This document shows positions 2,409 through 49,200 of a stretch of DNA of 64,000 bases, one piece after another (within the stretch, counting starts at the first letter, position 1; each line of letters starts with the position of its first letter). The notes beneath the pieces are model-generated. The model saw only the letters and a program-made list of their open reading frames with translations. It was not told the DNA's origin and ran no database searches. Made by a program: the position numbers and the translations under genes. This DNA comes from Marsupella aquatica (Eukaryota > Plantae > Marchantiophyta), in contig OZ316891.1 of the NCBI GenBank assembly GCA_973895155.1, positions 22,457,168 through 22,521,167 of the forward strand, read 5' to 3'.

Positions 2409-2544
2409 GGCTATTCCTTCAGAGGGCAGGGGGTTGATCCGGCTGTGGATTCGGGTCTGATCGTCTAACAGGAAATCTATCGAGCTTGTACAGTATTGGT
2501 GCGCTTAGGATATGTTTGTGTCGGACCGGGAGAGATAGAAAGAG

Positions 2545-3249
2545 ATGAAGCGCGTGTTCGGTGTGAAGAAGGACACGGCGCCTGCTCCCACGGTGGACGA
2601 GGCGACGCAGCGGATCAACAAGAGGGGCGATGGAATCGATGAGAAGATAAAAAAGCTTGAGGGGGAACTGGTGAAGTACCGCGAGCAAATCAAGCGGACA
2701 AGGCCGGGTCCTGCACAGGAGGCCATCAAGGCGCGAGCGATGCGAATTCTGAAGCAAAAGAAGATGTTGGAAGGGCAGAGGGATCAATTGTACAGCCAAA
2801 CGTTTAATTTGGAGCAAGTCTCCTTTGCCACCGAGGGGTTGAGAGACGCTAGAGAGACCATGTCGGCTATGCGAGCTGCTAACAAAGAACTTAAAGGAAC
2901 GATGAAGACGATGAAAATTGATGACATTGACAAAATGCAAGACGAGATGATGGATTTGGTGGACTACAGCAATGAGATCCAAGAATCACTCGGCCGCAGT
3001 TACAGCGTGCCTGACGATATTGATGAGGATGAACTCCTTGGAGAGCTTGAAGCTTTAGAAGACGATATGGGAAGTGAGGATGTGGCTGGTGGGGTCCCTT
3101 CGTACTTGCAGGCGGACACCGAACCAGAGGCCGAGCATTCTGATTTAAACCTACCTTCGGCACCGTCAGGACAGACTTCTCAACCTAACGCCACTCTTGT
3201 GGATGAGTTCGGATTTCCAAACCCTCCAAGGACTTCTGTAAGAACATGA
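2545..3249 (+). CDS. VPS60: ESCRT-III associated Snf7-family protein VPS60/CHMP5 (single coding exon)
   Basis: 234-aa ORF with MKRVFG N-terminus, PAQEAIKARAMRILKQKKM.E.QRDQLY.QTFNLEQ and EIQESLGRSY.VPDDIDEDEL.GEL.ALE motifs typical of plant VPS60. Confidence 0.95.
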   Translation: MKRVFGVKKDTAPAPTVDEATQRINKRGDGIDEKIKKLEGELVKYREQIKRTRPGPAQEAIKARAMRILKQKKMLEGQRDQLYSQTFNLEQVSFATEGLRDARETMSAMRAANKELKGTMKTMKIDDIDKMQDEMMDLVDYSNEIQESLGRSYSVPDDIDEDELLGELEALEDDMGSEDVAGGVPSYLQADTEPEAEHSDLNLPSAPSGQTSQPNATLVDEFGFPNPPRTSVRT

Positions 3250-5731: not shown

Positions 5732-7222
5732 CTAATCACCAATACCACTGCCGTAGCTACTATCCGACAACCCTCTCTTACTCAAAGTGGGATAAGGAGA
5801 AGGAGAAGCTGGTCCAAAGCCTGGAAGTAAATCCAACTCATCTTCGCGCTTAAAACTATCGACTCCAATCGGGACAGGAGGCAGATCAACGTGCCTTCTT
5901 CCGAATCCCAAGATTTCATCGGCACCCATTGCTCCTCCACCTTGCTGTCGTGACAGAGAGTCCTGCTGAGCAGCTTCCATCAACATGTCCAACTCAAAGG
6001 GATTCATAATGTCGAAACCTGCAAATGGAGGATTAGGGAGACGATTTGCAAAATCAGGACTCACGCCTACGTTCAGCTGAGTATTAACTCCACCTAGCAT
6101 GGACGAAGGCAATACAGCCGCCTGCTGGCCCATTTGATGCGCCTGTAGTTGAGCTAGCAAGCTTCGAGTACTTGCGTCACTTTGTGCTCCTGGCTCCTTT
6201 GTCATTTCACCGATGCTTGAACCTCCAGAATAAGTTTGAGGCACATTCACGACCTTGGCAGTAGACGCAGCGGCACCCCCTCTGCCACCTGGTTGAACAT
6301 GCATTGAACCTGCGAAGTTACTCCCCGGCGCTGCTAGAAACGTAGCGACTGGGTAGGGTTGAGTGTTGACGCCACTTAAGCGTTTCAGGTACTGTCGATA
6401 CTTCTGCAGATGGCTTGCCACATGCTCCCGCGAAAGGCCCTGCACATTCATAATCTCGAGAATTCTCTTCGGCATGGCTTTCTCAAACCCTAGCTGGTTC
6501 ACTGCATTGACGAACTGCTGGTGAAGCTCCACCGACCAAACGACTCGAGCTTTCTTCAAGCTGCTCACGTCGTCGACCAGCTGCGCCTCTTCCGCAGCTT
6601 CCTCATGCATTTCCTTCCTCTTCTTTGAGATGCTGTTGTCTGCCCCTTCAGTAACCGGGGACTCTAATCCTTGACCGCTTTCATCCCAATCCCCTGCTGA
6701 CTGCTCGTCCTTGATAGCCTCTCCCCTTCCTCCGCGTCGACGTATGACATGCTGCCAGATGTTCCGCAGCTCTTCAAGACGGACGGGCTTGAGAAGGTAG
6801 TCACATGCTCCGTGCGTAATCCCTTTCAGAACAACATCTGTTTCGCCATTTCCGGACATCATAATGACGGGCAAGTCCAGCTCCAGTCCAATGGCCTCGA
6901 GCAGCTTGAAGCCATCCATATCAGGCATGTACACATCGCTTATCACCAAGTCGAAGGCATTCCTATTTTCACGCAGTAGCGTCAATGCTCTCGCGGCGCG
7001 TTGACATACCGTAACGTTGTAGTTACATTGCTGCAACATTGCCTCCAAAATCATCAAACAGACTGGATCATCATCAACAACCAAGACCTTCATTCCGACA
7101 GGAGTGAACCCTTCGACCACCGGCGTCATTTTCTCGTTTGCGTTCTCACTAGCTAAATCCTCCCAAAAGGTTCCGGAAGAGGTTCTTCCCCTTCCAGAAA
7201 TGGATTTTTCCAGGGACTTCAT
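5732..7222 (-). CDS. Type-B response regulator (receiver + GARP/Myb DNA-binding domain), intronless CDS
   Basis: Receiver D-D-K motifs [17 protein letters not shown] and YLLKP. GARP motif [21 protein letters not shown]...ASHLQKYR. First ATG at 7222, just after a TGTAG acceptor, suggesting a 5' UTR intron. Confidence 0.95.
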
Positions 7223-8036
7223 TGATCGTTCATACGCTACAGGCCACAAGATACAACCCTCACAAGTTCATGTTTTTTCATGGCCAAAGAGTCTCAGACG
7301 ACAAGCAGCGTGACAATATCATCAAACTACGTATCCCTTTCCCAAAGTTCAGTGTTTCCACTAAAATCTTATCACCACAAATGACAGAAACCATCAGAGC
7401 GCAATTGCATGCCTTAATTAAACAGCTGGGTCTCCGCCCCGAAAACCACTTCGGTGACAATTCTGCTAGATGCAATCACTCACGCCGGTGGGGGTAACCT
7501 TTCCAGCAACACTGATCTGCGCATTTTGGGGCAAAGCCGATGGTATACTACGAGGCGTTCTTCCAACAGAAGCGAAACCTACTCCACGAAAACACGAGAC
7601 CGTCTTCCAAATAACCCAAACCCGCCGAGAAAAAACAGACGACCTTCTTCCAAATCAACCCGACTCGCTCTGCACGAGAGAAGTCGAGCTCCTCAAACTT
7701 CGTCCGACCCAGTAGAGCAATCGAGGCCTCCTCGTGACGAAAAGACCAGCTCCGTCCAAGCGAAGCAAAAACACTTTTCCGAATGAAGCGGAAACCCCCC
7801 TGAGCTTGACAGATCAACTTCCTCTTTTTTTTTTTCTGAACGAAAGGGAAACCTCCGGGACGAGAAGATCAACTTCTTCTTCGAGGCTGAACCGAACCTA
7901 CTGCTGTACTGTGCGTGACGAGAAGACGAACTCCACCACGGAACCACACTGTACCCTAAACACAATCTGTCAGCCAAAGCGGATGAAACGGAAAAGACGG
8001 GGGCCCCATTCCATCCACCTCGGACCACCTCAACCA

Positions 8037-11055: not shown

Positions 11056-14000
11056 ATGGAGGAGGACATCCTATTTCTGGGATTCGATTGTTCAACGCAG
11101 TGAGTGATAATTTATGTACAAATGCCAATCCTCTCCCAGCGAGGAGACCCATATCATTCAACCAATTCTCTCTGTCTCTCAATTGGAATTTGGAGTTAGG
11201 AAGGAAATGTTAAATGTTCGTTTTATCTTCTCCTTCACTGAGCTCTCTGTGGTGTAAACTCATGCAGATCACTGAAAGTCACAGCACTGGACACCAAACT
11301 GAGACTGGTCGGCTATGAGAGTGTCCATTTCGACTCCGAGCTGCCTCATTATGGAACCAAGGATGGGGTTCACCGAGATTCATCATCATGTAGTGGAAGA
11401 GTTTCCTGTCCACCTCTCATGTGGGTGGAAGCCTTAGAACTGCTGCTGAATAAATTGGCAAACTCTAACAAGTTTCCTTTGGAGAAAGTGAGAGCCATGT
11501 CGGGTAGTGCTCAGCAACATGGGAGCGTTTATTGGAGACAGGGTGCCCACGAGATGCTGCAATCTCTGAACCCATCTCACACACTGACTTCTCAACTAGA
11601 GCATGCATTCTCTCTGAACAACACGCCTATCTGGATGGACAGCAGCTCTACTGCACAATGTAGGTACATTGAAGAAGCACTCGGAGGTCCAAAGGCTCTA
11701 ACTGAACTCACAGGGTCTCGTGCGCTGGAGAGGTATACTGGGCCACAAATCAAAAAGCTGTACCAGACCCAGGAGGATGTTTATAACAGGACTCAGAGAA
11801 TCTCATTGATCAGCTCTTTTATGACTTGCCTTCTGATAGGGGACTACGCCAACATTGACTACACTGATGGGGCTGGGATGAGTCTCATGGACTTGAGGAC
11901 TCACAAATGGGTGCCAACAGCTCTACAGGTCGATCAGGACTCGTAGGGTAGTCAGCCATCTTTGAAACATGTTCAAGTCCCTTGCCAGAAGAAAGATCCC
12001 TGTTTTGCTAGTCTACTTACGTAGGGTTCAAAGACGGTCCTCCTCTAGTTTGTCTCCGTGTATTGAAACGGTATGAAGTTCTTCAACTGTTGTTCAAAAG
12101 AGTAGTGATAAATTGAAAGCTCAAGGGAGGAGAACAACACAGAGCAATGGCTGAAAAGTGGATTGCGTTGAAATGTATGCTTGCTTTGTTCAATAGGCCA
12201 CGGCACCGAACCTAGAAGAGAAGCTGGGTAATTTGTCTGCTCCACATGCAGTAGCTGGCCGGCTTCACTCGTACTTCGTAAAAAAGTATGACTTCTGACA
12301 AATCGTGAACTTTCTAGGTGGATGGTATGAAATGTCAGCATTTATAACATTACTAACATTTCTCAGTCCGCGCCGATACGGGCGTTACAATTGTACGAAA
12401 AAAGAATGAAGAATGCACTCCAACTGCACTTTGAATGCAGGTACAAGTTCAGTGAGCAATGTCGGGTCATACAATGGTCGGGGGACAATCCGAATAGCCT
12501 GGCAGGTAGTCCGCAAGAGCTTTCTCTGACATCGACATAAGAATAGATCAAGGGATTGAAAGTTGATTGATATGCTTCAGGAACTTCCTGTTGTGACGCT
12601 TCTTGTATGTCACTTAATATCTTGATTTTGGGGATCTGCAGGATTGGCTTTGGAAAAGCCGGGAGATCTAGCAATAAGCTTGGGAACTAGCGACACAGTA
12701 AGTATTTGTGCAGCCCAGGAGTAAGAATTGGAGTACCATGTCGTTTAAAACAGTTAGGATCATTTGTGATGCTCTTTGATATAAGATCATTCCCTCACAC
12801 AAAGCTCTTCACTTTACGGTCAAAATAACAGGAAATTTGTGAGTGGTGTCACCGCGAGAAATTGTTAAAAAAAAGAGCGGACGGATACATCATGATTTGC
12901 ATTTGCTGCTGTGATTTAGCTCTTGTTAGCTGAGGGTGAAATTTTATCCTCCTCGTGATGCAGGTTTTCGGAGTTGTTAAGGATCCCCGGCCTGGATTCG
13001 ACAGTCATATATTTCCTAATCCAGTGGACCCGACAACCTTCATGTGCATGCTATGCTACAAAAATGGTTCACTTACACGGCAAGGTCAGATTCTCATGTT
13101 GATTTCACCCACGCATTCTCGTTCCTCACGCGTCTATCAGAAGATGTTGAAATCATGTCAGGTCCTTGGCAAAAATGTGTAATGACCTCTTTACGTATAC
13201 TGTAATCAGGGCTGTCTCCTGACTCGTCAAACAAATACGTGCAGTATACCAGATGGAGACCACCATGTTTTAACATGAATATTCGTTGATCTAGCAGACA
13301 TAAGGGATCGCTGTGCTGCTGGATCCTGGGAAAAATTCAATCATCTTCTGGATTGCAATCCTCCTCTAAATGGTACTGCTTAGTCCCAAAGACCGTAAGA
13401 TTGCGTTTCAGACCCAGGAAACGTGATCAAGTTTCTTTCATGTTTCATCAAACCTTCCTTGTATCATCTTATTACTGATGTGGCACACCTTCGTGAAATT
13501 TGTAGGAGGAAGAATCGGCTTCTACTTCAAAGAACCAGAAGCACTTCCTCCGATGCCAGGTCCAATAGCAACTTACCTTTATCTCTAGACTATAGCGTAG
13601 AGACTAAACCTTTCGTAGATTTGGGAACACAGAAGGTTCTAATTTTAGAATGCGAGACAAGATTTCATGATTCTCAATACTTCAAAGGAAGGACTGAGAA
13701 CCTGTCTATCAATTAAAATCTTGCGGTTGGTACACACCAACTTTCATGTGTTTCTTATTCATGAGAATTGAATCATACTCTGGAATGCGTGTTGGGCCAG
13801 TTGGTGCAGAGAGACTTTGGTAGGTAGGTATTAACCATGAGAGTTGAGATGTAAATTGAAGTACTTCTCTGTGTAGTGGGTGTCCATCGATTCTTTCTTG
13901 GCGGTCCTGAAGGGGAGCCTATCAAAGTGCCCGACTTCAATGACTCTACAGAGGTGAGGGTGTGTGATAATCTCAAAGACTCGCTCGAATGAACATGATA

Positions 14001-14636
14001 CGAAAATGACGCTGATTGCCATACCCGGAGATTGCTAATCAGGAACTTGGACAGTGATATTCATAATAGGTTCCTGGTGCAGGTGAGGGCTGTTGTTGAG
14101 GGCCAATTCCTCGCAATGAGAGCTCATGCCAACAGATGTGGAATGCCTCCTCCTGACCGAATCATTGCAACCGGGGGAGCGTCTGCTAATCTACACCTAC
14201 TGAGAGTTATGGCTGATGTTTTTGGATGTAATATTTACACAGCGGATAATCCAGGTATTTCGCATTCGTGCAGAGTGCTGTGAGTACATCTCCAGCGCTT
14301 CCAATTTATTATTCATGTATTGATTCCAACGGCGTTTGACATTTAAGTTTCCTAAACTCATCTTTCTCGCTAACCAGCGGGGTGACTGGATGATTTTGTG
14401 CTGCAGACTCGGCATCTCTTGGAGCGGCACTTCGAGCTGGTCATGGATACATCCATGGGAACGATCCAGAATTTACTTTTTCAAAGCTCTTGGGATACGC
14501 CACTGAGGAGAGCGCAACTCATTGTAGGCTCGCAGTACCTGCTACGAGAAATGGCTTGCAGAATCAGTATGGACTACTAGCAGCGAAACGACTGGCGCTA
14601 GAGAGCATGCTTTTGCAACAATACGGATACCGATGA
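11056..14636 (+). CDS. Xylulose kinase (FGGY carbohydrate kinase, XK-2/XYLB-like), multi-exon
   Basis: Spliced N-terminus MEEDILFLGFDCSTQSLKV. Motifs SGSAQQHGSVYW, PIWMDSSS, LTGSRALERYTGPQIKK, WSGDNPNSLAG, ISLGTSDT, CYKNGSLTR, VRAVVEGQF and IIATGGAS.N. GT-AG introns. Ends ...QQYGYR-TGA. Confidence 0.93.
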
Positions 14637-15892: not shown

Positions 15893-18494
15893 TTACCAAA
15901 AGTCCCCACAAGAGCAAATGCCATCCTTGAAATGATGAAAACGGCTTGCATCTCTCACAATGATTTCTCTCTGCGTTAATTTTGCTATGAATTTGGTAGC
16001 ACTGTGACAATCACCACAAACCCTTAGATTTTTTATGATACGGATGGGAGTCCCGGGAGAGCTGTTCATAAGACCAAATGCGATGGCTAGTTTTTCGCTA
16101 TGTTGCCATAAGCGAGCTATCTTCTCTTCTTCCTCTATATCATATAATACGAAGGTGGTGTCTGGTACATACCCTGCCTCCTTCATCACACTTGACAATC
16201 GAGTTAGTTCTGCACGGATTTCAGTAATCTGAGGATGTTCTTGATCATTGGAGACAAATGAATGCATCTCTCTGTTGACCTCAATCCAGGTGCAGCCAGG
16301 CCCTTTCTTTACACCACTCTCTGACTTCATTTGTTGAATTTTCGCTCTGCTGTCCCACTTGCCAGCAGCAGCATAAATGTTTGATAGGGTAACATAGCCT
16401 GATGCATCTCTCGGTCCTGATTCAAGAGCTTGTTTTGCAATGCGCTCTGCCATTTCTACATTTCCATGAATTCTACAGGCACCTAGCAAAGATGACCATA
16501 CTGAAGGACTTGGCTCACACGACATAGTCTTGATCATATTTTCTGCCTCTTCCAGACGACCTGCACGGCCAAGAAGATCAACCATGCAGGCAAAGTGCTC
16601 TACTGTTGCTGGAATACCATGTACAAATTGCATGGCTTGAAAGCATTCCAAACCTTTCTCCACTAGACCTGCATGGCTACAAGCTGACAGAAGACAAACA
16701 AAAGTAACCATATCCATCTCCGCGCCTTCATGCTGCATCTGCTCAAAAAGCTCGAAAGCTTCCTTGGCACACCCATGCATGGCATATCCTCCAAGCATGG
16801 CACTCCAGGAGATCACATTACGAGTGATCATCTTGTCAAATACCCTCCTTGCCTCCTCTATACTACCACATTTGGCATACATGTCAACAAGGCTACTTGC
16901 AATAGAGATATCAGACTCAAAACCATGGAGCATGATCTGCTTGTGCACACTCCTGCCTTCTTCAAGAGCTGCTACACTGGCACAAGCACTGAGAGCCCCA
17001 AGAAAAGTCACCAAATTGGGATCAACTGGTTCTCCTTGCATCTCCCTATACAACTTCAAGGCTTTATGCCCTTGTCCACATTTCACAAGTCCCAGAATCA
17101 TGGCATTCCAAGCACTGGCGTCGCGTACTGGCATTTTGTTAAACACACTCCAGGCATCCTCTATGCTCCCACATTTGGTGTACATATCAACCAGGCTACT
17201 CCCCACAAAGAAATCAAACTCACAACCTCTTTCAATGGTCTGTGCATGTACCCGCCTGCCTTCTTTTAGAGCCAAAGCCCCAACACTGGCACATGCATTA
17301 AGCAACCCCACAAACGTCACAGGGGTTGGTTCGATTTTTTCCCTCTGCATAAGCCAAGAAAGTTGCAGGGCCTTCATCCCTTGCCGACATTTCACAAAAC
17401 CCACAATCATGGCAGTCCAAGAGACCACATTGCGAACAGGCATCTTGCTGAACACCTTCCATGCATCCTCTATGCTTCCACATTTGGCGTACATGTCCAC
17501 CAGGCTTGTCGCAACAAAGACATCGGATTCGTAACCACTTGTGATGATCTGTGCATGAAGCTGTCTGCCTTTCTCCAGAGATGCTAAACTGGCGCATGCA
17601 TTGAGCACAGGAACAAAGGTATACTTATCTGGGTTCATGCCCTCTTCTTGCATTTTTTGAAAAAGTCCCAGTGTCCTTTTGTACTCCCCGTCTTCCACAC
17701 ATTTTGAAAGCTTTGTATTCCAAGAAAAAGGATTCCGTTGAACAGTTCCTGGTGTAATACTAGACAGCTCTGCCTCCACCCATGGGGGATTCAATCTATG
17801 AGTGAGCCAGAGTGCAGCTTCTGTCTTCTTGTGCTTGAAATCTGGATAACTTCTGTTCATCTGGGGACCAAAAATTTAATTCATCTCATCAACGAGCAGT
17901 CTTAGCAGCATGGAATAATCAAGACTAGAAGAAATTTAACATAGTTCATCGAAACCAAACCCTGGCTTGATTACTGTCAATGGTTAAGGCTCTCGTGACA
18001 ATCTACCTTCTCTGACCTATGATCCCACCACTGCAAAGGATCTGAAAAGAACTCCCGCCAAAGGTTCTCAACATGTCTTTTCTGACCAACTTCTGCGCAC
18101 ACAATAAAGGAGCAAGCAGATTTAGGGTTGAAAGTAGCCCACATAAGGAATCTCAAGGGGAGGGCCATGTAACAAATTCGCTGTTCGTTACCTGACAAAT
18201 AATGAACTTTACAAAGTTATTACACATTGACATCGACTGGTGGTTGAACATTCCTTTCATTCATTCAAAGAACTAGAGCTGCTCCTCCGACACTAATTTC
18301 CAAGACGAACTTCCTTGAAATACCGGTCCACTCTCAAGGGGGAATTTTTTCCAGTCTACGACTCAGCCCACAGACAACAACTTCAATCCAGTGCAAATGT
18401 TACCTTTTGTCCTCATTGTGGAGTTTGATCTTGGGAAGCCCGCCTGTCCCCTTGAGAACATAGAAAATGTCCCATGCAACCTACCGGTAGCCAT
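15893..18494 (-). CDS. PLS-class PPR protein with E1-E2-DYW deaminase domain (organellar C-to-U editing factor), plus an N-terminal OSB-type PDF motif
   Basis: Main exon 17860-15893 has 12 PPR motifs ((P1-L1-S1)x3 then P2-L2-S2), E1/E2, PG box PGCTWIE, HSEKLA, CGDC and terminal CSCGDFW. Upstream exons 18092-18007 (CAG/GT bounded) and probably 18494-18404 join in frame. The first exon is less certain. Confidence 0.92.
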
Positions 18495-18790
18495 GGCAAT
18501 GTCAGGGACAAAGGCCCACCTCGCGTGCTCAATTAATGGCCAAAACAACGATGGAAGTGAAAGACGATTGACTAAAGACAAGATCCAGTAACATGAATCG
18601 GTACTGTACTGCATTCAGCGAGCACGAGGGAGAATTGGACCAGAAGGGTGGTGCACGAAAGCCCAAATTGCTAGCCAGCCAGAAAGCCTGCCAATTTGCC
18701 ACGAGGTGTCATGAGCTCCACCTATCAAATTTCTTTAAATTCAATTGCTTAATATATTGATACCTCAATCATCAGTACACGCCCGGCGAT

Positions 18791-18840
18791 CTTCCCTTCC
18801 CTTCCCTTCCCTTCCCTTCCCTTCCCTTCCCTTCCCTTCC
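18791..18840. repeat. (CTTCC)10 pentanucleotide microsatellite
   Basis: Direct reading of the sequence. Confidence 0.95.
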
Positions 18841-19245
18841 AAATGTTCACTTAATGTACCACTCCCGAAGAGTGCAGCAGAAACGCATAGAGCCGCAGCA
18901 GCAGCAGCAGCAGTGCTGCTATTGTTGTGGTGAATTATTCCACCACTGTAAAATATCATGAGTATCAGATACTGACATTTCCCTTAGGAAAGGGTTCACC
19001 CAAAAGATACAAGGCACTACATCAACTCTAAAAAACTGCTATTCAAAGACCTGTTTCTAAGGACGTGTCTGAGAACACGGACGAAAAACCCTATAATTGT
19101 AGAGTAACAACTAAGAAATCCGACAAATCTCAGAAAGCTAGAACAACACAGAAGTGAACAAACAGTTCAGGCCACAAACTGCAATGCCACCATAAGTGGC
19201 AGGGGAGACAAGTGAGTAGCCAGTTGTCGCCACAATGCCAACCAG

Positions 19246-19745
19246 TTACAAAATCAAAATTAATCCTAACACAGCGACATAAGAGTGTAAATGGTGGCAA
19301 TGACGACCGCAATGAGTATCAACGGACCAGAATGTCCACTCACCATCATCAACAGCAGTGGAACTGGGCCAACCCATGGGCATCACCACTGCCATAATCT
19401 CTCTTTCACTAGTCGGGTCCGACCAAGGACCAAATGACTTTTCGGGTTTCTTCCCAGTCCGGATGAATCCAAAACGAGCCCCCCGGAAAGAACGGTAACC
19501 AATCCGAACCAGCACTCTGAATGCGAATTTCTTTCAATGGCTGTTCTGTTCCGGTAACTGGGAGCACTGCTCTCAGCAGCAGCAGCAGCAGCCTCATCCA
19601 CGGTATCCTCCCTTCCGGATGATTTTCCCGAATAGCTCCGTTTGCTGCTGTTGCTCCATGGTAACCCTAAACTGCTAACCACTCTACTCTTGGCTAATGA
19701 GAGCCCACCACTGAATCTCCACAATCCCCGAGACCTTACTGCCAT
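19246..19745 (-). pseudogene. Frameshifted copy of an uncharacterised plant family with DWLPF.PG.S(F/Y)W and GWPSS motifs
   Basis: Transit-peptide-like MAVRSRGLWRFS.. in one frame, SDWLPFFPGGSFWIHP in a second and PTSEREIMAVVMPMGWPSS in a third. The family is recognised from memory of the motif pair. Confidence 0.55.
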
Positions 19746-22378
19746 CAGACTCCTCCACTCTTGCTGTTTTTTGCTTCTCTCCAATCCAATCCTCTGATGT
19801 CCCCTCCTCTTTCCTAGCCAACAGAAGCAGGACAGCCGATTAAACTTGCAGCTCGATTCCACTACACAAAAATTGCCTCATCCTTCACCAGATTCTCGGA
19901 ACCCCACACGATGGATTTTTCAATCCACTACTCTGATCCTCCTCCTATCCAACAACAGCCTCCTCCTAACAGGCGATCACTCCTCCAGCTCAAATCCATT
20001 ACCACATAAACTCCCTTGTCTTTCAGCAACTTCACATTTCCCAACACGATTGATTCTTCAGCTGATCCTGCCACCTTCCCTTCCTTGAGCATGCTGATCC
20101 TTTGGCCCAGACTTGAATTCCACCTCCGACTGCTTATTAGTACAAAACGATTCTCTATTCCCATTGCCCTCTGAAGCATTTGCACGAATTGGTAGAGTTA
20201 AGCTCTGTACCGAGACTCCATAAGCTGGTAGTGTGTTGCCGGTAGTCATCAAAACCATGGAACCTACTACTAGTGAAGTGGGAGGGGGGGACTGGATCAG
20301 GTAACGAACCCTCACATATCAGTCCTGGAACCTGAAGGCAATCCCAGTAACATCATGTTTTGCCTCTCAAACTGAACATTTTATTGAGCAAAAAATAGTC
20401 AAATAGTAGGCCTATGTGTGTGTGTGTGTGTTGGGGGGGGGGGGGGGGGGCGCAGGCATAGAGGGGCGTGGTAACTGCACATCAAAAAGCCACAGCCAGA
20501 TACACAGAAGGAACACCGCTCATTGATGTAAACAAACGACCAGGTTTATAGAGGTACTTGCCCCGACTACCCGTTCGTTGAACATGAATAGCCAAGAGAA
20601 CAATAAAAGTGTCACCAAAGTATATTTCCTATTCGCATTATTTGAATGTTGATGAAATGATGAAAAACTATCACGCATGTCATCATTTTAATAATCATAC
20701 ATAACATACCATTCTTCTCTCTATATACATTTCTCTTTCTATGCAAGTGTGTTATTTGAATGTAAATAGAAATCATAAGAGAAAGTGTGCATGATAATTA
20801 TCATTTGACATACATCATAGTCATAAGTTTTCCATTCACATGATGGGCCATGAAGTTACGATCTAGAGGCTTCACTCTAGAAGCCTAGCTCCCAACTCTA
20901 GCTTGTAGTTGGAGTTTTATAAGTAAGATGGAAAATACATTCACTTAGTGGGCACTTGCCACATTGCACAATACACTATATGCTGATGCTTTCTGACAAG
21001 TAATTAACACCAGACAAGCATAAAGCGTACCACTTTGGCTAGCATGGTGAAATCTGCCTAGCCACATCCTGCAGTGTCATCCTAGTTTGCACAAAAGATA
21101 AATAATTATTGATGTTTTTGGCATTTCTGATAAAATGTTTTGGGCTCCTTGAAAAGAAAATTCTAACTCTGGGTTGGGGTAGAGGAAAACAAATTCCTTC
21201 TTTATGTGCGTAGCCAAAGTTGAGATTTAAATTTTTATATGGGACTCAGTGCTTGCCAAATAGATGGGATTTCTCCCCCTCCATCTGTTTATTAATGAAG
21301 GCAAGGGAATGAGGCTTTTTTTTATCACAGTCTCATCATCGGCCCATTTTGACTGATTGCAATTGCAATGTAATTGCATGACTGTTCCTGCAGGGCACTA
21401 GTATTGATGCATGGGGGGAGGCCTAAATGCCCAATAACCCTTACATTGAGTAGGACTTTAAGGCTGGAACTTTCTAATCTCTACAACCAAATTATTCTCT
21501 TCCAAGTCCAGTTGTCCATGTTACTATTCGTCATTCATCTCATAGGTCCAATCATAGGACATGAGTCTTTCCATTTGAAGCGTTACCTCCCAAGGTGGAA
21601 GGTTGTCCCTTGTTAGGCCAATGTGCCTTGCTAATCACTTTCGGATGACATAAGTCTGGTTCCAGGAAAAATATTGCCCCTGACTAAACTCTGTCCTGTC
21701 TAGTCGTCTAGAGGAACCCAAGTGTATATTTTCAAACTTTCTTGGGGTTATAAGAATTTGGGGACTACCTATATAAAGCCAGGGAGTAACATTAAGTTTA
21801 GAGACGAGAGAAAATAAGTATGATGTATCATGATATGGAGTAATAACTCTGTGGGACTCATAAGCTGAGTTTTATATTGTGTGAGACCCTCAAGTTTTTG
21901 AGATTTTTCTATATTTGGGAGGGTCCTTATGTGGGCTCTGGTAATCATTGCTTAGAAATATGGGATGACTCTCAAAAGTAGATAATGACGGTCTCTGACT
22001 GGACTCTTCCAATAATGATGAGCGCAATTTATAATCCCTAAAAACGTTCCAATACAGTAATATAATTCAGAGTGACCTTCGAAGTTTAGGCCATCCATTT
22101 GGATATGACTCAGACCCATACCGCAGTCGCCCAAAAGAGTTGGGAGTTGTAGAAGCCTGCTACGGAAAGAGCATGATAGATTGCATGGCGGTGTCCTGTG
22201 TCAAGCATAATCGGTCCCATGTTTTTAAAAGAGCAAACCCACACAGAATTTCGGTTCTTGTAGAAGAATGGCACCTGGCCCCCGTGTAGAAACTTTTCAT
22301 AATAAACAACATAGAGGTTGAGCTTTAAAAATTCGGCTGTACAATAATGAAATCAGACTGTACAGTTTGAGCTAAAGC

Positions 22379-26239
<3,861 letters not shown>

Positions 26240-27533
26240 CTTTAACTGCAAAGCCAGCGTCGAGTTACTACTCCCGAGCAATTGAGGGCTCTAGAACCTG
26301 GGTTGCAGCCGTCTGCCGCGCAGCATCGGATCCGATTGACAGCACCGACGATCGTAGCTGAAACCGTGGCTATATCTGACGAACTGATAACAGATTCGCA
26401 ACCCCTGTGTGGCCTGCTCTGCTCTATTAATCTCTTCGTTTGCCTTCAAAATCAGAATTACCTCAACAAACAAGATAGGATCTGCTAAGCTTCTTGGCCG
26501 AAACCAAAGCCCCGTCGCTCTTCTGACTCTCTTGCTACAACTGTACGTTACATTTCAGCCCCAGCAAGCACATTCCGCTGTTTTCCAATCGTCCAGCTGA
26601 GATTTCTTCGTCCACCTAGAGGTACTTGTTTTCTCTTCCTAGCCCCGATGATTCGTCTTCTGGAGGTGTGACTAGAATAAAATGCTGAAGGACGGAAATC
26701 CCGAATGACGGTGTTGAGACGAGAGAAAACTCACCTACACAAGAAATTGCTGCAGGACGGAAATGCTGAAGGGCAGAGTTGTGACGAGATGAACCCGGCT
26801 CTCGGCTCCCATCACTGGGAGTGTCATACTCTCACCCCCATTTTTTTCTCCTTGGGAACCCCATTCATGAATAGAAAACCTTATGTGACACTCTTTTGAG
26901 GTGGACGTACATATCAAGATGTATTTCATGGCTTGGGCTTTGTTCCAAGTGTGAAAGGGGTGAGTGTCCCCAACAGTAGTAGCATAGTGTTTGGCTTGAA
27001 ATCATATAAATAGAAATATATATAATTGTGAGACCATATGTGTACATAAATCAAAATGTTTTTATTGAAAAAAAGTGGGTAACACGCGCTTAGAGCATCT
27101 CCAACGGTTTGGAGATTTTGCGCCGCTATCCCAATAGTATAGCGGATCATTTGGCGCCTGCGCAAAATGGAGAGTTGCCCCCTTCCACGCAATCCCCACC
27201 GGCGGACACCCCATTCTGACCCCCATCCCATGAAGCGTGCGTACGAGCTGGGGCCCACCTGGTCCAAAATAACGTGAAGTGGGTTGTGGCACACTGCCCG
27301 CTGTTTTGCGTGTGTTTTCTGTCCCTCTGGTTCTTGCAGACCTCGACTCCCGGTTCGCAAAATTGGAAGCCGCAGGAACCATGTCGATCCTACGATTTGA
27401 ATTTGTTGGGGTTGATTTGTGCTCTGTGCTTCCCTTCAGGTGTTCGCTTTCACTTTACGGCCAGCTTTACCTAGTTTTCATTGGGAAAAATTAATCAGTC
27501 TTCGCAAACCAGGCTGTGCTTCATCTATCGAAA

Positions 27534-28844
27534 ATGGACCTCGAAGGGTGGCTGGCAGATCTCGAGGAAGAATTGGATGAGGAGGAAGCTGATTGGGATG
27601 AGGAACAAAGATTTTGGGAGTTGATGATGTTCACGGGACCCCTTTCTATTCCAAATTTGGGCCAACAGTCAAGGAAAAGAAAGCATGGAGGGTCTAGACC
27701 AGGCAGGAGTGAGAATGTGGAGAGACGCAGAGAAAAAGGGGCAAAAGACCTATGGAATGATTATTTTTCTGATACACCAACCTATGATGAATTGAAATTC
27801 AGGAGGAGATTTAGAATGAGCAGCGGTTTGTTTAACAAAATACTTCTTGATGTCTGTGCTCATGACACTTATTTCTGTCTGAAGGTTGATGCTGCAGGAA
27901 AGGTAGGCTTGTCTCCACATCAAAAGTTGACAGCAGCATTGAGGCAGTTGGCTTATGGAATTGGGGCAGATGCTTTGGATGAGTATTGTAGAATTGCTGA
28001 AAGCACAGCATTGGAGTCTCTTTATAGATTTGTGAAAGCCATCAGGGAGTTGTATGAGGGTGAATACTTGAGGAAGCCAACAGCTGCAGATTTCACAAAT
28101 CAGCTGCAAATCAATGCAAACCGAGGTTTCCCAGGTATGTTTGGTTCATTGGATTGCATGCATTGGGCATGGAAGAATTGCCCTGTTGCTTGGCAGGGCC
28201 AATACACTGACAAGGACAAGAACAAGTCCATCATCCTGGAAGCAATTGCTGATCAAGAATTGTGGATTTGGCATGCCTTTTTTGGGCTGGCTGGGGGAAA
28301 TAATGACCTGAATGTGCTTGACCGATCACCACTTCTAAATGAATGGTTGCGCAATGATTCAGCCAATGTCAATTTCCATGTCAATGGTACAGAGTACAAA
28401 CGAGCTTATCTACTGGTGGATGGAATTTATCCTGAGTGGTCTATGTTCATATCCACTGTGCACATGCCACAATCTGATAAGTTGAAGCATTTTGCAAGAT
28501 GTCAGGAGGCAGCCAGAAAAGATGTGGAGAGGGCTTTTGGGGTCCTCCAAGCTAGATTTGAGATAGTCAAAAGGCCTGCTAGGTCCTGGTACGAAAAGAA
28601 CATTGTAAATATTTTGCTTGCATGTGTCATCCTCCACAATATGATTGTTGAGGATGAAAGAGATGACAATTTTCCTCCATATTTAAGGGTTCATGCTGCT
28701 AGAGTGAACAGGGGAAATCCGCCATGGTTGGAGTTCCTTGCTGCAACAGCTGAAATTAACAATAAGGCTAACCACTTTCGCTTGAGAAATGACATTGTTG
28801 ACCACCTTTGGAGTAGAAAGGGGTCTGGTGTTTCTGATCACTGA
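27534..28844 (+). CDS. Harbinger/Pong DDE transposase (Plant_tran type)
   Basis: FRRRFRMS, QKLTAALRQLAYG, RGFPGMFGSLDCMHWAWKNCP, NNDLNVLDRSP, YLLVDGIYPEW, QEAARKDVERAFGVLQARF and ACVILHNMIVEDE. Uninterrupted. Confidence 0.95.
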   Translation: MDLEGWLADLEEELDEEEADWDEEQRFWELMMFTGPLSIPNLGQQSRKRKHGGSRPGRSENVERRREKGAKDLWNDYFSDTPTYDELKFRRRFRMSSGLFNKILLDVCAHDTYFCLKVDAAGKVGLSPHQKLTAALRQLAYGIGADALDEYCRIAESTALESLYRFVKAIRELYEGEYLRKPTAADFTNQLQINANRGFPGMFGSLDCMHWAWKNCPVAWQGQYTDKDKNKSIILEAIADQELWIWHAFFGLAGGNNDLNVLDRSPLLNEWLRNDSANVNFHVNGTEYKRAYLLVDGIYPEWSMFISTVHMPQSDKLKHFARCQEAARKDVERAFGVLQARFEIVKRPARSWYEKNIVNILLACVILHNMIVEDERDDNFPPYLRVHAARVNRGNPPWLEFLAATAEINNKANHFRLRNDIVDHLWSRKGSGVSDH

Positions 28845-29858: not shown

Positions 29859-30875
29859 CTACAACTGGCTAGCTAGCAAACCCTGGAACGAAAATCCAGG
29901 TTCACATGCCCGAAATTGGGTTTCCAAATCTACATGGTCCTCTGCTACCCCTGTGTTTTCATCCAGTTCAACTGTGCTGTCATCAAAAACCAGACTATCA
30001 ACTCTGGTCTCACGAAAAACAGGGAGTGGATTTTGTGGCGGATTTTGTGGAGGTTCTGTAGCCTGCATCCGAGCTTTCAATTTCCTGGCCTCTTCCAGCT
30101 TCCACTGTCGGACATAATCACGGAGCTCTGGTTCCATGTTGTCTGTAGGTAATGTCAGCAACTTCATCAACGAATTGTTCTGCAATGTCCTGACCCGATC
30201 TCGATTCGCAGCTGCCATCTCCCGTTGGGCATTCGCACTTACCTTCATTGCTTCTTGTTCAACCTTCATTCGCTTGTGATCTTCCTTGGCTCTCTTGTTT
30301 CCCTGAGGCCTCTTCCTTGCATCACAATCTTCGACAGGTTCTTGGTGCTGCCTATCGACACTTTCATTGTCACCATTCTCAATGATGATTGGACTCGGGC
30401 TAGAATGTTCATTCTCGATCGTGTCGGACCTGGATGATGTGGATTTCCTGCCCTTCCCTTTCGCCATATCGTCTGCTGGATTCCCCCACCGTGGACAATC
30501 TTTCAAAATCCAGAAGCAGGAATCGAAAGAAAAAGTTTTCACTTTGGGATGGTTCTGTTTGTATAATTCCTTCGCCTTCAGCACAGTGTCATCGACGTTG
30601 GTCCCCGAAATCTGAAGGTCCTCTACCTGCTGAAAACATCCGATGAATTTTGACACATCATGTTTAATATCAGACCACTTCCCTTCCAGAGATTTTCGGC
30701 CCCTCGACTCAGCTCCCTTCGGTTTGTGTTTCTCGTAATGCTCGGTCACCCGGTCCCAAAATCTCTCAGCCCTCTGCCCTGCACCAATGCAGGGATCTTG
30801 GGACACATGAAGAACACTGTAGCACAATTGTTTAAGCTCTTCTGCACCATAATTTTTCCCACGACTTGCTGCCAT
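29859..30875 (-). CDS. Harbinger/Pong ORF1 Myb/SANT-like DNA-binding protein with NAM-associated-like region
   Basis: RGKNY..EE..QLC.S.L.VSQDP..GAGQ...FW.RV...Y, R..KSL..KW..I...VSKF.GC, F.FDSCF.ILKDCPRW and RPQGNKRAK. Lies inside the TIRs. Confidence 0.9.
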   Translation of the reverse strand: MAASRGKNYGAEELKQLCYSVLHVSQDPCIGAGQRAERFWDRVTEHYEKHKPKGAESRGRKSLEGKWSDIKHDVSKFIGCFQQVEDLQISGTNVDDTVLKAKELYKQNHPKVKTFSFDSCFWILKDCPRWGNPADDMAKGKGRKSTSSRSDTIENEHSSPSPIIIENGDNESVDRQHQEPVEDCDARKRPQGNKRAKEDHKRMKVEQEAMKVSANAQREMAAANRDRVRTLQNNSLMKLLTLPTDNMEPELRDYVRQWKLEEARKLKARMQATEPPQNPPQNPLPVFRETRVDSLVFDDSTVELDENTGVAEDHVDLETQFRACEPGFSFQGLLASQL

Positions 30876-31299
30876 TGTCTCACAACTTTCAACTTTGTAC
30901 GCGCAATGTCACTGAAATTCTCGTGTGCAATGTCAGGTTTGCACGACAACTCCTGTGTCCCACAACAATCACTGTTCATGGAAAGTCGAAGCGGGAAATC
31001 TGGACACAATTCTGGCGCGAGTACTCCTTCGCATCGCGAGTGCCGCGTGGCTACTTGGCTGCCGTGGATTCATTTGGGGGATGGCGGAGGGGCTTGGAAT
31101 GGCGACCGCCTTCCTGCCCGAAAGTAGCGGCACACAGGCGAGAAAGTTAGCGGCTTTCTCCAAAAATTTACAGAAGCGGTCACCGTTGGACATGCTTTTC
31201 TCCAAAAAACAGCCGCTACTCCGGGGTTTGCGGGTTACGGAGCTCTTTGCAGGCACCGTTGGAGATGCTCTAGTTGTAAGTTTAGATGCCCATCCGTTG

Positions 31300-45497: not shown

Positions 45498-46268
45498 GAG
45501 CGGAAATCGATGCCCAATTGGTAATCTTCAAACCGATTCCTGTGCGCGTTGGGTCTCTCTTTGCTTTTGTGCTGTGCTGTTGTTTGTGATGTGAGAATCG
45601 GGCGGAGGACCACGGAATTTTGGTCGACGGAAGCCATTTGCGTTTCGGAGTTGGATGTCTGGCTTCTTACGTCCTTGTCGTAGGCGGATTCTTGCCCTCG
45701 TGTGGACGAAGGTGGCGTTGGGTGGAATTTTTATGTCCCCTCAGTTTGTTTGTTGCAGGGTGAAGCGCAGAGAAGACCTTGCATTTGGTGGTCAGCTAAT
45801 AGCAGGCAAATTACATATTCTCAAGTAGATGGCGGAGCAGTTTCTTCATCTTCGACAGTGCACCAGGGAGAAGATGAGGATGACGGTGGTACCCGGCAAC
45901 CTATCTGAACCCCCCGCTAGCAAAGCAAATTTACTCGTTCGACTTGGATAGTTTCGGGACCATTAGGTGAAGTCAGCTGGGTGCAACCCCTCGTAGAAGG
46001 GAGAGAACACGATGACAAGGAATGCCTTGCAAAGGTCGGTTGGTTGCTGGATGTTTCTCTAGTAGCAAAAGTACTAAACCGTGCTCAAAGAAAGCGGAAG
46101 CTAAGTCCAACCCAACTATAGGAAAGGCAAATTCTCGTAAAGGAGAGAAGCATCAGGGCGAATCATGCCGATAGCTTCACACCACTGCAGACAGGGATTT
46201 GGACCTGTATGATGCAGCAGGGGAATGCCTGGGCCCTTTGAAGGAGGGCGATAGGGCAGTGGAAAGAT
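45498..46268 (+). repeat. Duplicated 5' leader, copy 1 (upstream of CAP-G)
   Basis: Collinear similarity to 54845-55813 in many blocks. Confidence 0.9.
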
Positions 46269-46278
46269 AGTAGGGAGG

Positions 46279-49200
46279 ATGGGGAGGGTGAGGAAGGAGA
46301 CGCGACCCCCGGCGGCTGCAGCGATCCTAATTCCGAGTTTACTTGTCGAGTGTGAGAAATCACAAGCCTGTCATCCGAGAGCGATCAAGCAGCTAGCGGA
46401 GTGTCGTAAGAACGATATTGTTGATTTTCTGGAGGTTTGGATACGCACTCTCCAGCCTTTGTTCGTGGTCTCGAAAAGGGAGCCGGCTGTCGAGCGCCTT
46501 GTGAGCTTCGCTTCTTCTTTCACGGCATTCTGGGATGAAGAGTTTTCCAAAGACTGCGAGACGTTCTTCGAATTGTTTCTGTCGACTCTACTTGATTGGG
46601 CTGAGGCGGCTCACAAGAGCGTTCGCTTTCGTGCCTGTCAAATGATATCAGAAGTACGTTTCTCCGAGGCTTTTGATTTGCTCATTTCCGTATCTAGGTT
46701 TTGTTGAAGCTGCCCTCACCGCTGACTGTTTGGGACGCTTGGGCAGGTGTTCTTGAAACTGGATGTCCAAATCTCGGTAAACCCGCAATTGTGGGATAGA
46801 ACTACTGAAACAATGCGGACGCGTATACAAGACAAGCACGCAAACGTGCGAGCGTTCGCCGCAAGTGCTCTCTCGAGGCTTTTCAACTCGGACGACATCG
46901 AGAATGATCTCACTGTGCAGGCTTATCGAAACGCACTGGCATCTGATCCGAGTGCCGTAAGTTTCTCCTTGAATTCTCGAATCTGCATTGCCAATGTCTT
47001 TATGAGGCACGGAGCTTGATCTCATTCGGCCAATTGCACCCAATTTCCTGAAAGCTGCACAACATATTTTCGTGAGAATGGACTTTTCTGATCGCCCCTG
47101 ATTTATATTTGCGAAGTGGAATCTCCGTAGTTCATTAGACTAAACCTGGAAACAAATGTTTTAGAAGTTCGCAGAGGCGTATGCCTTGAACACCCAAGGA
47201 ACCACAGCTGCGGCGGCCTGACTAGATTTTCCTAACGAATAATGGTGCATGGTCCAGGAAGTCAGAAAGGTGGTGGTTAAATCCATGCCTGCCGCGACTG
47301 CCACAGTTTCCGATATCGTCCAACGAATTGCGGACGTCACTGCCTCAGTCCGAAAAGCTTCCTATCAGAACATTGGCGAAAGACTACGACCTGCCAGTTG
47401 CTTGAGGTAAGCTCTTCTGAAAACAAAATCATGTCCTGGGAAATTGGTAACCCCTTCTCCAGTGTCTTTTAAAACGACAGACTATACCGGAGATATGCTC
47501 TGGTTTAGGCACATCCATTGTTAACTATTGAAAGATGTTCCGGTGTAATGTGCATCTAGCATCACTCAGCGGGCCATGACAATTGAAAGAGGACTAGCCG
47601 AGAGAGATCCTGCGGTGCGGGAGGAATGTGAAAAGCTACTGGAACTGTGGTTGCGTGAAGATTGTGACAATGATCCTCTAATGCTGTTGAGATATTTGGA
47701 CGTGGAGACACACGAGAAAGTGGGTGAGACAGCCATGTTGGAGTTGCTGAGTAAAAATCTCATCAAGTTCAGTGACACTGGTCTCCGAAAATTTCTAGAC
47801 AGTTCAGGTAACCCGACTATTCGATCCCTCTTTTGGCTTGAACCTTTATCTCAAAACATCTTGACAAATTCAAGCCTTCTTCTAGAATGGGTTTTTTCAG
47901 ACTGGATTGGAAACTTTAAAATACTTTTGATCCAACATTCACTGCTTCAACGTGTCTTGGCAGGGAACGAACAATTCCTGATGAGCCCAGAAGAAGCATT
48001 GTTCTGGCGCGTAGTTTGTACTCATATTCATTCGGAGGCAAAGGTAAGAGGTCACGACGAGTTACCTCGAGGTCTTCACGACACGATAATGAGCTTAATC
48101 TACAAATGTGGAGTCTAGAGATGCAACATTTTATGGTGAGGCTGTAAATAGATTTCAGTAGACCGATACAAGTTTTCCGCAGAAGCTTCATAGCATATCG
48201 TAGCCTCTAAGTATAGCTGTTGTCCTGTTGTGTTCCTGTACACAGGCAAAAGCCTCTGAAGCTGCTAATACCGGTGGTGCGGAGGCAGCTGTCAATGCGG
48301 CTGTGGCTGTCGAACAGAATGAGTATCTCGAGAGCATCCTGCCGCTTACTGTCGCTGATTTTGTGCGACTTGTTGAAATTCACCTGCACAAAGGTACTAG
48401 CTCCACATTCTTTGCCTTGTGCCATATATCCCACCTTCGCTAACAATACTATTCCAGTTAATCACTCCGTTGTGATGCATCTCCTATGAAGTACAGCCAG
48501 ATATGCGAGGGTTCTCCATTGTGTTCTTCCTTCAAATCACGCTCCTGCTAACAGGAATGTCTTGATCATTCAACATTTTGTACACATGGAGCTGCTTCGT
48601 GACTCCTGAATCTCCTCTTGCGACCCTCGTGTGATGTAATAGTATAATGTGTGTTCAGGGTCAGTTGCTTGGTTCGCAGCACGACAGCTACTTTTGATAG
48701 CCAAATTGATGGATTTCACTGATTCAACAAGTCGCAAACATGCCGGGCTCCTTCTGCAAAGACTATTGAGAGAGACAGCACCGTTAGAAGAAGAAAGTGA
48801 GTCTGATGACCTTACCTCTCACGGATGGGTGGGAGATGGCGTTAGTCTTGGTGGAGAAGAAAGTTGGGCAAATGCTGTTGCAGAGTTTGCCCGTCATGTA
48901 CATGCTTCAGCTGGCGAGTTTGAAGAAGTTTTAGCAGCTGCTGTTGCTGAAGTTGGTAGACCTTGTAGAGAAGGGGGAGCCGATGAAAGACAGTGGCTGC
49001 AGGGCCTCGCCGTCGCCGGACTTCTTCTTGAGAATATCACATCTCTAGATGTTCTTGCTGGACGAGCTATAGAACCTGAAGAAATAATTCATTCGCTGCT
49101 TCTACCTGCAGTAAGCTCTCTTCCGTAGTTCTTCAATTCATACGGTGACTTAGAGGGGGATGCCAGTCATTGCCTGTCTGATCAATCAATTTATTTGAAT

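Follow-up and report, generated by a model that had tools for sequence, protein, structure and literature searches.

An OSB-type PDF domain ahead of the PPR tract of a PPR-DYW protein in the liverwort Marsupella aquatica and its relatives in seed-free plants

A minus-strand gene in a 64,000-nt stretch of the Marsupella aquatica genome (hereafter, the window) encodes a PPR-DYW protein with a PDF domain, otherwise familiar from plant OSB proteins, at its N terminus. This PDF-PPR-DYW combination is a real and conserved architecture of a known enzyme class, is widespread in seed-free plants and is apparently undescribed.

Gene model and domain architecture

Joined by coordinates, the three exons (18494-18404, 18092-18007 and 17860-15893) give 2,145 nt encoding 714 amino acids with no internal stops. 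Coding exon 1 (18404..18494, minus strand like all features of the gene; 91 nt) supplies the start codon, ATG 18494 in the context GCCATGG, and a 30-residue presequence-like segment that on inspection is basic and rich in S/T (aa 1–30: 5 R/K, 8 S/T, no D/E); by comparison with known families, the protein would be imported into an organelle. The exon ends at a GTAAC donor, and paralogous contigs span 18404-18594. Intron 1 (18093..18403, 311 nt, GT..AG, phase 1) is followed by exon 2 (18007..18092, 86 nt, bounded by CAG and GTAGAT), which encodes the first half of the PDF domain (a helix and WWDxR). Intron 2 (17861..18006, 146 nt, GT..AG, phase 0) lies within that domain. Exon 3 (15893..17860) encodes the second half of the domain, a linker, the PPR tract, E1, E2, DYW and the stop, as delimited by the open reading frame and domain matches.

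Evidence for splicing comes from sequencing run X1, taken by guess to be RNA, of a related organism; most of its contigs are less than 95% alike to the window. One X1 contig (depth 48) joins 17860 to 18007 with CT..AC ends and skips exactly the 146-nt intron, with 5 differences from the window in 88 letters of exon 2. In another (depth 53), 17848 and 18006 are connected through 11 letters of different sequence, amounting to four different codons. Fourteen X1 contigs lie on exon 2, while those inside the introns have depths of 4–7 (about 7 in intron 1, against 140–360 on exons). No joint across intron 1 was found among the listed contigs of the runs. At 18404, run X3 has a loose end in which 27 of 30 letters agree, by eye, with the start of exon 2 (window 18063-18092); since X3 could be DNA, this sequence may derive from an intron-less paralog, in which the junction would still be marked. 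The spliced model and its 18007/17860 junction, proposed in the first-pass annotation from the sequence alone, are thus upheld by the X1 joint, by GT..AG ends in phase 0 and by a 714-residue frame without stops, the spliced reads being those of the related organism's probable RNA.

Two other starts were considered. ATG 17860 was rejected, as it sits immediately 3' of a CAG acceptor and cuts the PDF domain; annotation by open reading frame only starts PDF-PPR proteins at a false mid-domain ATG and loses the presequence. The upstream in-frame ATG 18614 was disfavoured because of a frame-breaking 2-nt deletion at 18522 in runs X4 and X5.

The PDF domain (aa 39–94, 17756..18069, split by intron 2) is followed by an 8-residue linker (aa 95–102, 17732..17755), the length of which is fixed in bryophyte members. 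Pfam matches and alignment then delimit 12 PLS-class PPR motifs (aa 103–510, 16508..17731), the number first reported, arranged as three P-L-S triplets and P2-L2-S2. E1 and E2 (aa 511–578, 16304..16507; PF20431, E = 3e-16) and a DYW deaminase domain (aa 579–714, 15896..16303; PF14432 positions 1-93 of 93, E = 3e-45) complete the protein. The DYW domain has a PG box, HSE (646), CxxC (674), an HHF/CSC second zinc site and a terminal DFW. Its zinc motifs are intact, as had been claimed. Compared with the consensus of 41 relatives, four conserved positions of the domain carry another residue (Y632 for H, I634 for V, S679 for T and F713 for Y); H632Y, Y713F and S679 are absent from the Calypogeia ortholog. 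The closest solved sequence, the 612-aa synthetic PPR-DYW protein 9kfx, matches aa 44-655 of exon 3 (E = 1.6e-246).

All sequence features of a PLS-DYW editor are therefore present, as defined in the available text of PMC7611903. P-L-S, P2-L2-S2, E1, E2, the PG box, HxE(x)nCxxC and the second zinc site are shared with PLS-class PPR-DYW editors such as Physcomitrium PPR56 and PPR65 and Arabidopsis OTP86 (structures 9kfx, 7o4e and 7w86). Judged by these families, the protein is very probably a C-to-U RNA-editing factor. It differs from them in the N-terminal PDF domain between presequence and first repeat.

To score this domain we used a hidden Markov model (HMM) of OSB proteins only, trained on 55 PDF segments taken from 18 OSB-type proteins, of which 16 have a Pfam SSB match at E ≤ 0.01 and 2 are named OSB. 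Residues 39–94 scored 72.7 bits, against a maximum of 13.8 for 1,000 shuffles, and among the 1,681 six-frame open reading frames of the window only the two exon frames reached E < 0.1. The OSB proteins had been retrieved with exon 2 as the query (a Pfam SSB match in 17 of 52 scanned; two clusters named OSB2/OSB3-like), which makes the 29.0 bits of exon 2 alone circular; the exon-3 half, not part of the query, scored 34.4 bits alone. The assignment to the OSB-type PDF motif, initially made by eye, is thereby confirmed. Near-invariant residues of the domain (W5, W15, D17, R19, K22, P28-D29-F30, K33, L39, W40 and W47) stand at 94–100% in OSB PDFs (W47, 92%) and 97–100% in 117 PPR-fused copies, and all are kept in this gene. 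R19, K22, K31, H32 and K33 stand at 86–100% in PPR-fused PDFs. Mean net charge is 0.0 in the fusions versus +1.1 in OSBs; that of the window copy is −2.

In the ESM Atlas, the domain of the Calypogeia ortholog aligned to three PPR clusters (57, 127 and 63 members; TM 0.83–0.92) and to an SSB cluster (TM 0.83), all labelled PF30937, the Pfam 38.1 label for the PDF domain, which the ortholog also carries. An Atlas feature search gave no usable match for the domain. AlphaFold2 models it as helix, short strands, helix, with a pLDDT of 90–96 in a short relative and 69–90 in the full-length Calypogeia ortholog, and the domain is predicted from these models to fold independently. Against solved structures, the best sequence match had E = 0.45, Foldseek gave none at E ≤ 0.001 and the best VIA-align Z was 3.8, which is not proof of a new fold; BFVD held no match.

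Pfam gave no PF00436 match in the exon-2 or exon-3 frames, in line with the earlier statement that no SSB-like domain is visible, and only 38 residues lie ahead of the PDF domain. The protein thus shares with OSBs the PDF domain (72.7 bits; Atlas TM 0.83 to the SSB-family cluster, both PF30937) and an intron position, but it is not an OSB, because it has no OB-fold and its single PDF is N-terminal (aa 39–94 of 714) rather than C-terminal.

The surroundings of the gene are ordinary. A Snf7 gene (2539-3249, plus strand), a response regulator with a Myb domain in one long open reading frame (5732-7267, minus), an FGGY sugar kinase that ends tail-to-tail with the PPR gene (11242-14636, plus) and a Cnd3 condensin subunit (46255-50003, plus) are its neighbours. 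About 750 nt upstream, a gene-like stretch over three frames (19246-19877, minus) has a transit-peptide-like start, no Pfam match and a DWLPFFPG..FW motif that we take to mark an uncharacterised plant family; it is possibly a frameshifted pseudogene. A tandem GGAAG run (18785-18846) also lies upstream of the PPR gene, with CTG runs near 18900 and 19580. The tail-to-tail pair at 27495-28844 (plus) and 29859-30908 (minus), with Plant_tran/DDE_Tnp_4 and NAM-associated domains, presumably has the layout of a PIF/Harbinger transposon.

Family, selection and origin of the PDF domain

Although it had been presented as a single oddity, the protein is one member of a large PDF-PPR family in seed-free plants. 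A profile search gave 212 matches among 7,996 candidates scored, with PPR families in all 120 matches listed; the PDF profile included a few first-repeat columns, which favours PPR fusions among matches. These 120 homologs (58 Sphagnum, 27 Diphasiastrum, 12 Calypogeia fissa and 23 without a taxon name) are 90% clusters that include isoforms and orthologs, and are not gene counts. With the OSB-only HMM the PDF was found in all 120, full-length in 116 and with half the motif missing in 4. CxxC of the DYW domain is present in 50 of the 120, some of the others being fragments or E-type. PDF, PPR and DYW thus co-occur in Sphagnum, Calypogeia and Diphasiastrum proteins, and every named PDF-PPR protein among the matches listed belongs to a seed-free plant. 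In the one fern match, Adiantum capillus-veneris P0037, two PDF copies precede a PPR tract that is short and degenerate; either a separate fusion or an artefact of the gene model could account for it. According to the available text of PMC6865856, organellar RNA editing occurs in non-marchantioid liverworts and parallels their PLS-PPR diversity.

The ortholog is Calypogeia fissa CAM6085395.1 (P0001; 83% identity, tree support 100/99), with 84% identity in the PDF and 83% in the PPR and DYW parts; as annotated, its motif is in one piece. Sphagnum, Calypogeia and Diphasiastrum PDF-PPR(-DYW) proteins share architecture, linker and intron with the window protein. Most clubmoss members carry two or three PDF copies (22 of 27 Diphasiastrum), whereas the window protein, with one, is of the liverwort type. 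The spacing between the last tryptophan of the PDF and the first of the PPR tract is exactly 20 residues in 92 of 94 sequences from outside the clubmosses. Only 9 of 27 Diphasiastrum members show it, most of the other 18 having a longer Gly/Ser-rich linker. An unrooted C-terminal tree of 42 rows is star-like and mixes Sphagnum, Calypogeia and Diphasiastrum sequences; with no outgroup, it does not tell ancient duplication from horizontal transfer. The last 285 residues of Diphasiastrum P0003 are 76% identical to Sphagnum and 73% to Calypogeia, versus at most 70% to other Diphasiastrum members, an affinity for which slow evolution, old paralogy and transfer are candidate causes.

For selection analysis, 73 metagenome loci were reduced by dropping 21 that were short or had stops and by dereplication at 95%, leaving 28. 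The PDF had a pooled dN/dS of 0.14 (0.22 in the exon-3 half alone), compared with 0.30 in the first PPR triplet and 0.33 in the linker. Of the two PDF values, 0.22 is the fairer guide, given that exon-2 patterns determined which loci entered and that dS approaches saturation. Stops occurred within 150 codons in 16 of the 73 loci, 7 of them inside the PDF, and all of these were dropped beforehand. These ratios indicate that the PDF domain is under purifying selection, and it is very probably present and selected in the mature protein.

Intron 2 bears on where the domain came from. At 15 of 80 metagenome loci, a GT..AG intron of 138–159 nt lies at the same codon, in six distinct donor/length types; of the other 65, 57 are uninterrupted, 7 fall outside the pattern used and 1 is unresolved. 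The PDF is also uninterrupted in relatives from runs X2, X4 and X5 (window 17862-18404). Long contigs carry some of these uninterrupted copies, a hint of intron-less (retroposed) paralogs; some of the 57 loci may be transcript assemblies. In Victoria cruziana, two isoforms of an SSB-domain (OSB-type) protein are identical up to the lysine after WWDNR, the site of intron 2; beyond it, one isoform reads on into the PDF and the other runs out. The Victoria gene therefore appears to have a retained intron at the intron 2 position. Because the two positions match, the PDF domain was likely captured from an OSB-type gene. A FastTree phylogeny of the PDF separates all fused copies from the OSB copies, with a single long-branch OSB copy as the exception, but 55 columns are too short to prove one origin.

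Beyond plants, a degenerate DNA pattern for the motif core, chosen by us, matched 48 viral loci (L001–L048), all with the plant spacing and in most near positions 1501-1544; in frame, 44 read PDF and 4 PDL. The phage core, WDNR-x4-NPK-x-PDF, mostly sits C-terminal to an ERF or Rad52 domain: the 44 in-frame cases comprise 38 with an ERF domain (37 above the cut-off), 1 with Rad52 and 5 with neither (2 of them cut short). These ERF and Rad52/Sak annealing proteins thus have the same central motif as the plant domain, with identical spacing. Most matches are near-copies, with the core in a cysteine-pair (zinc-ribbon-like) frame scoring 21–30 bits, the cysteine pairs standing in place of the helices. 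The exception, L028:1419-1898 (minus), is a full plant-type helical PDF (54.7 bits) near a DnaB-like helicase gene. PHROGs, tblastn of named phages and a viral-contig locus search (54 candidates, 0 confirmed) returned no phage relative. Shared motif and spacing suggest common ancestry of the plant PDF and the phage core, a link that hints at where the plant domain came from. SSB-like OSBs and phage ERF/Rad52 proteins, the named PDF carriers outside PPR fusions, handle ssDNA, which bears on the role of the PDF through guilt by association only.

Possible roles of the PDF domain

We tentatively favour, with a probability of about 0.4, a weak ssDNA tether, which would gather the editor at nucleoids, as the job of the PDF domain; a tether had also been proposed in the first-pass annotation, and it gains indirect support. 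The PPR repeats would read one transcript site and the DYW domain would deaminate the cytidine, while the N-terminal PDF, by weakly binding single-stranded organelle DNA, would keep the editor on the nucleoid and close to new transcripts. We conjecture that such binding would place editing during or soon after transcription. The preference rests on ssDNA being the only ligand reported for the PDF in the available texts of PMC6963530 and PMC13393729, the former describing the OSB1 PDF as sufficient for ssDNA binding. It also draws on the retention of basic and aromatic OSB residues in the fusions, on the low PDF dN/dS (0.14–0.22) together with the identity to the ortholog, and on the tandem PDFs of clubmoss members, which recall the several copies of OSBs (available text of PMC13393729). 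The ssDNA-related functions of the other named carriers, the predicted independent fold and the OSB-matching intron position point the same way.

Several observations temper this preference. One PDF copy may bind little, because fused PDFs are less basic than those of OSBs and the nanomolar affinity of OSB2 is that of a tetramer (available text of PMC6963530). A tether needs no fixed geometry, so the fixed spacing better fits a rigid cap or a grip on RNA. Physcomitrium editors need no cofactors to function in E. coli and human cells (available text of PMC11094755), which, with the lower basicity, argues against an essential role. The evidence from conservation is weakened by the loci with stops inside the PDF, the exon-2-based choice and near-saturated dS, and that from phages by the near-copies, the zinc-ribbon-like flanks and our choice of pattern. 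A more ambitious version is a large clade of seed-free-plant editors whose PDF, borrowed from OSBs and of phage-recombination ancestry, would seat them on displaced strands (R-loops and transcription bubbles) to edit nascent transcripts; we judge such functional coupling of editing to R-loops or bubbles unlikely. In the strongest form, if true, the DNA strand would itself be a substrate for some members, and RNA editing would be tied to organelle C-to-T mutation.

The constant spacing in 92 of 94 non-clubmoss sequences raises another possibility, that the PDF is a sequence-independent grip on the 5' flank of the target RNA, raising affinity or keeping the site unfolded as MORFs do in seed plants. 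PPR tracts bind N-to-C along RNA 5'-to-3' (PMC13041630), which would place the PDF on that flank, the linker is conserved (8 of 9 positions identical to the ortholog; dN/dS 0.33), and MORFs are absent from seed-free plants (available text of PMC11094755), the group to which all named PDF-PPRs among the matches listed belong. Yet RNA binding by a PDF is not reported in the available portions of the literature surveyed, 18 of 27 Diphasiastrum members depart from the spacing, and Physcomitrium editors need neither MORF nor PDF (available text of PMC11094755). We place this reading close behind the tether, though as still improbable. The same fixed spacing, with a neutral to acidic net charge and many invariant Trp, Phe and Pro residues as in a folding core, would suit a PDF without nucleic-acid binding, whose role would be to cap or stabilise the first PPR repeat or to bind another protein. 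Some phage annealing proteins have C-terminal domains that bind partner proteins. Designer PPRs, moreover, require N-terminal caps for stability (available text of PMC11094755). The basic residues R19, K22, K31, H32 and K33, kept at 86–100% in fusions, speak against such a role, and tandem Diphasiastrum copies are hard to explain as a cap; we consider it quite unlikely.

The shared intron, which points to capture from an OSB-type gene, would suit a passenger, in which a founder PPR gene took the front or middle of such a gene and the family then grew for other reasons. Broken copies (7 of 73 with a stop inside the PDF; half the motif missing in 4 of 120) are in keeping with this, but the dN/dS of 0.14–0.22 and the full-length motif in 116 of 120 homologs of liverwort, moss and clubmoss already disfavour it, and we regard it as very improbable. 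More remote again is a second activity on single-stranded organelle DNA, in which the PDF would load the protein on displaced strands for cytidine deamination. Designer PPR tracts do read ssDNA by the same code at lower affinity (PMC13041630, PMC12733224), and a bacterial DYW-like deaminase serves as a DNA base editor (available text of PMC11789416). The PPR-E1-E2-DYW part, however, is that of an ordinary editor (9kfx match) with no DNA-specific feature seen in its sequence, and editing the DNA would presumably abolish the site served by the editor.

Novelty and significance

Full-text literature searches, judged mostly by titles and the starts of abstracts, found no paper on a PDF-PPR fusion, and an earlier mention is possible, for instance in the PF30937 entry. 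The 2026 OSB survey required PDF and OB-fold domains together for inclusion, and 'PPR' is absent from its available main text (PMC13393729). 'OSB' is absent from the 2026 PPR structure review (PMC13041630), and 'PDF' from bioRxiv 10.64898/2026.10.24.761589 and PMC8330923. A review of the extra domains of Physcomitrium PPRs names RRM, LAGLIDADG, SMR, NYN, CBS and SAP, with no 'PDF' in its text. The initial impression that no protein of this architecture had been characterised therefore stands as regards papers, within the parts of the literature available, but homologs are in databases and the domain bears a label (PF30937) in Pfam 38.1.

A separately folding, conserved extra domain on a large family of editors offers a clean deletion test, in E. 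coli and in planta. If the PDF raises editing efficiency, it would be a natural part for designer PPR editors. For the plants themselves, PDF editors touch on how editing factors reach their transcripts, whether editing is coupled to transcription and how seed-free plants serve many editing sites without MORFs.
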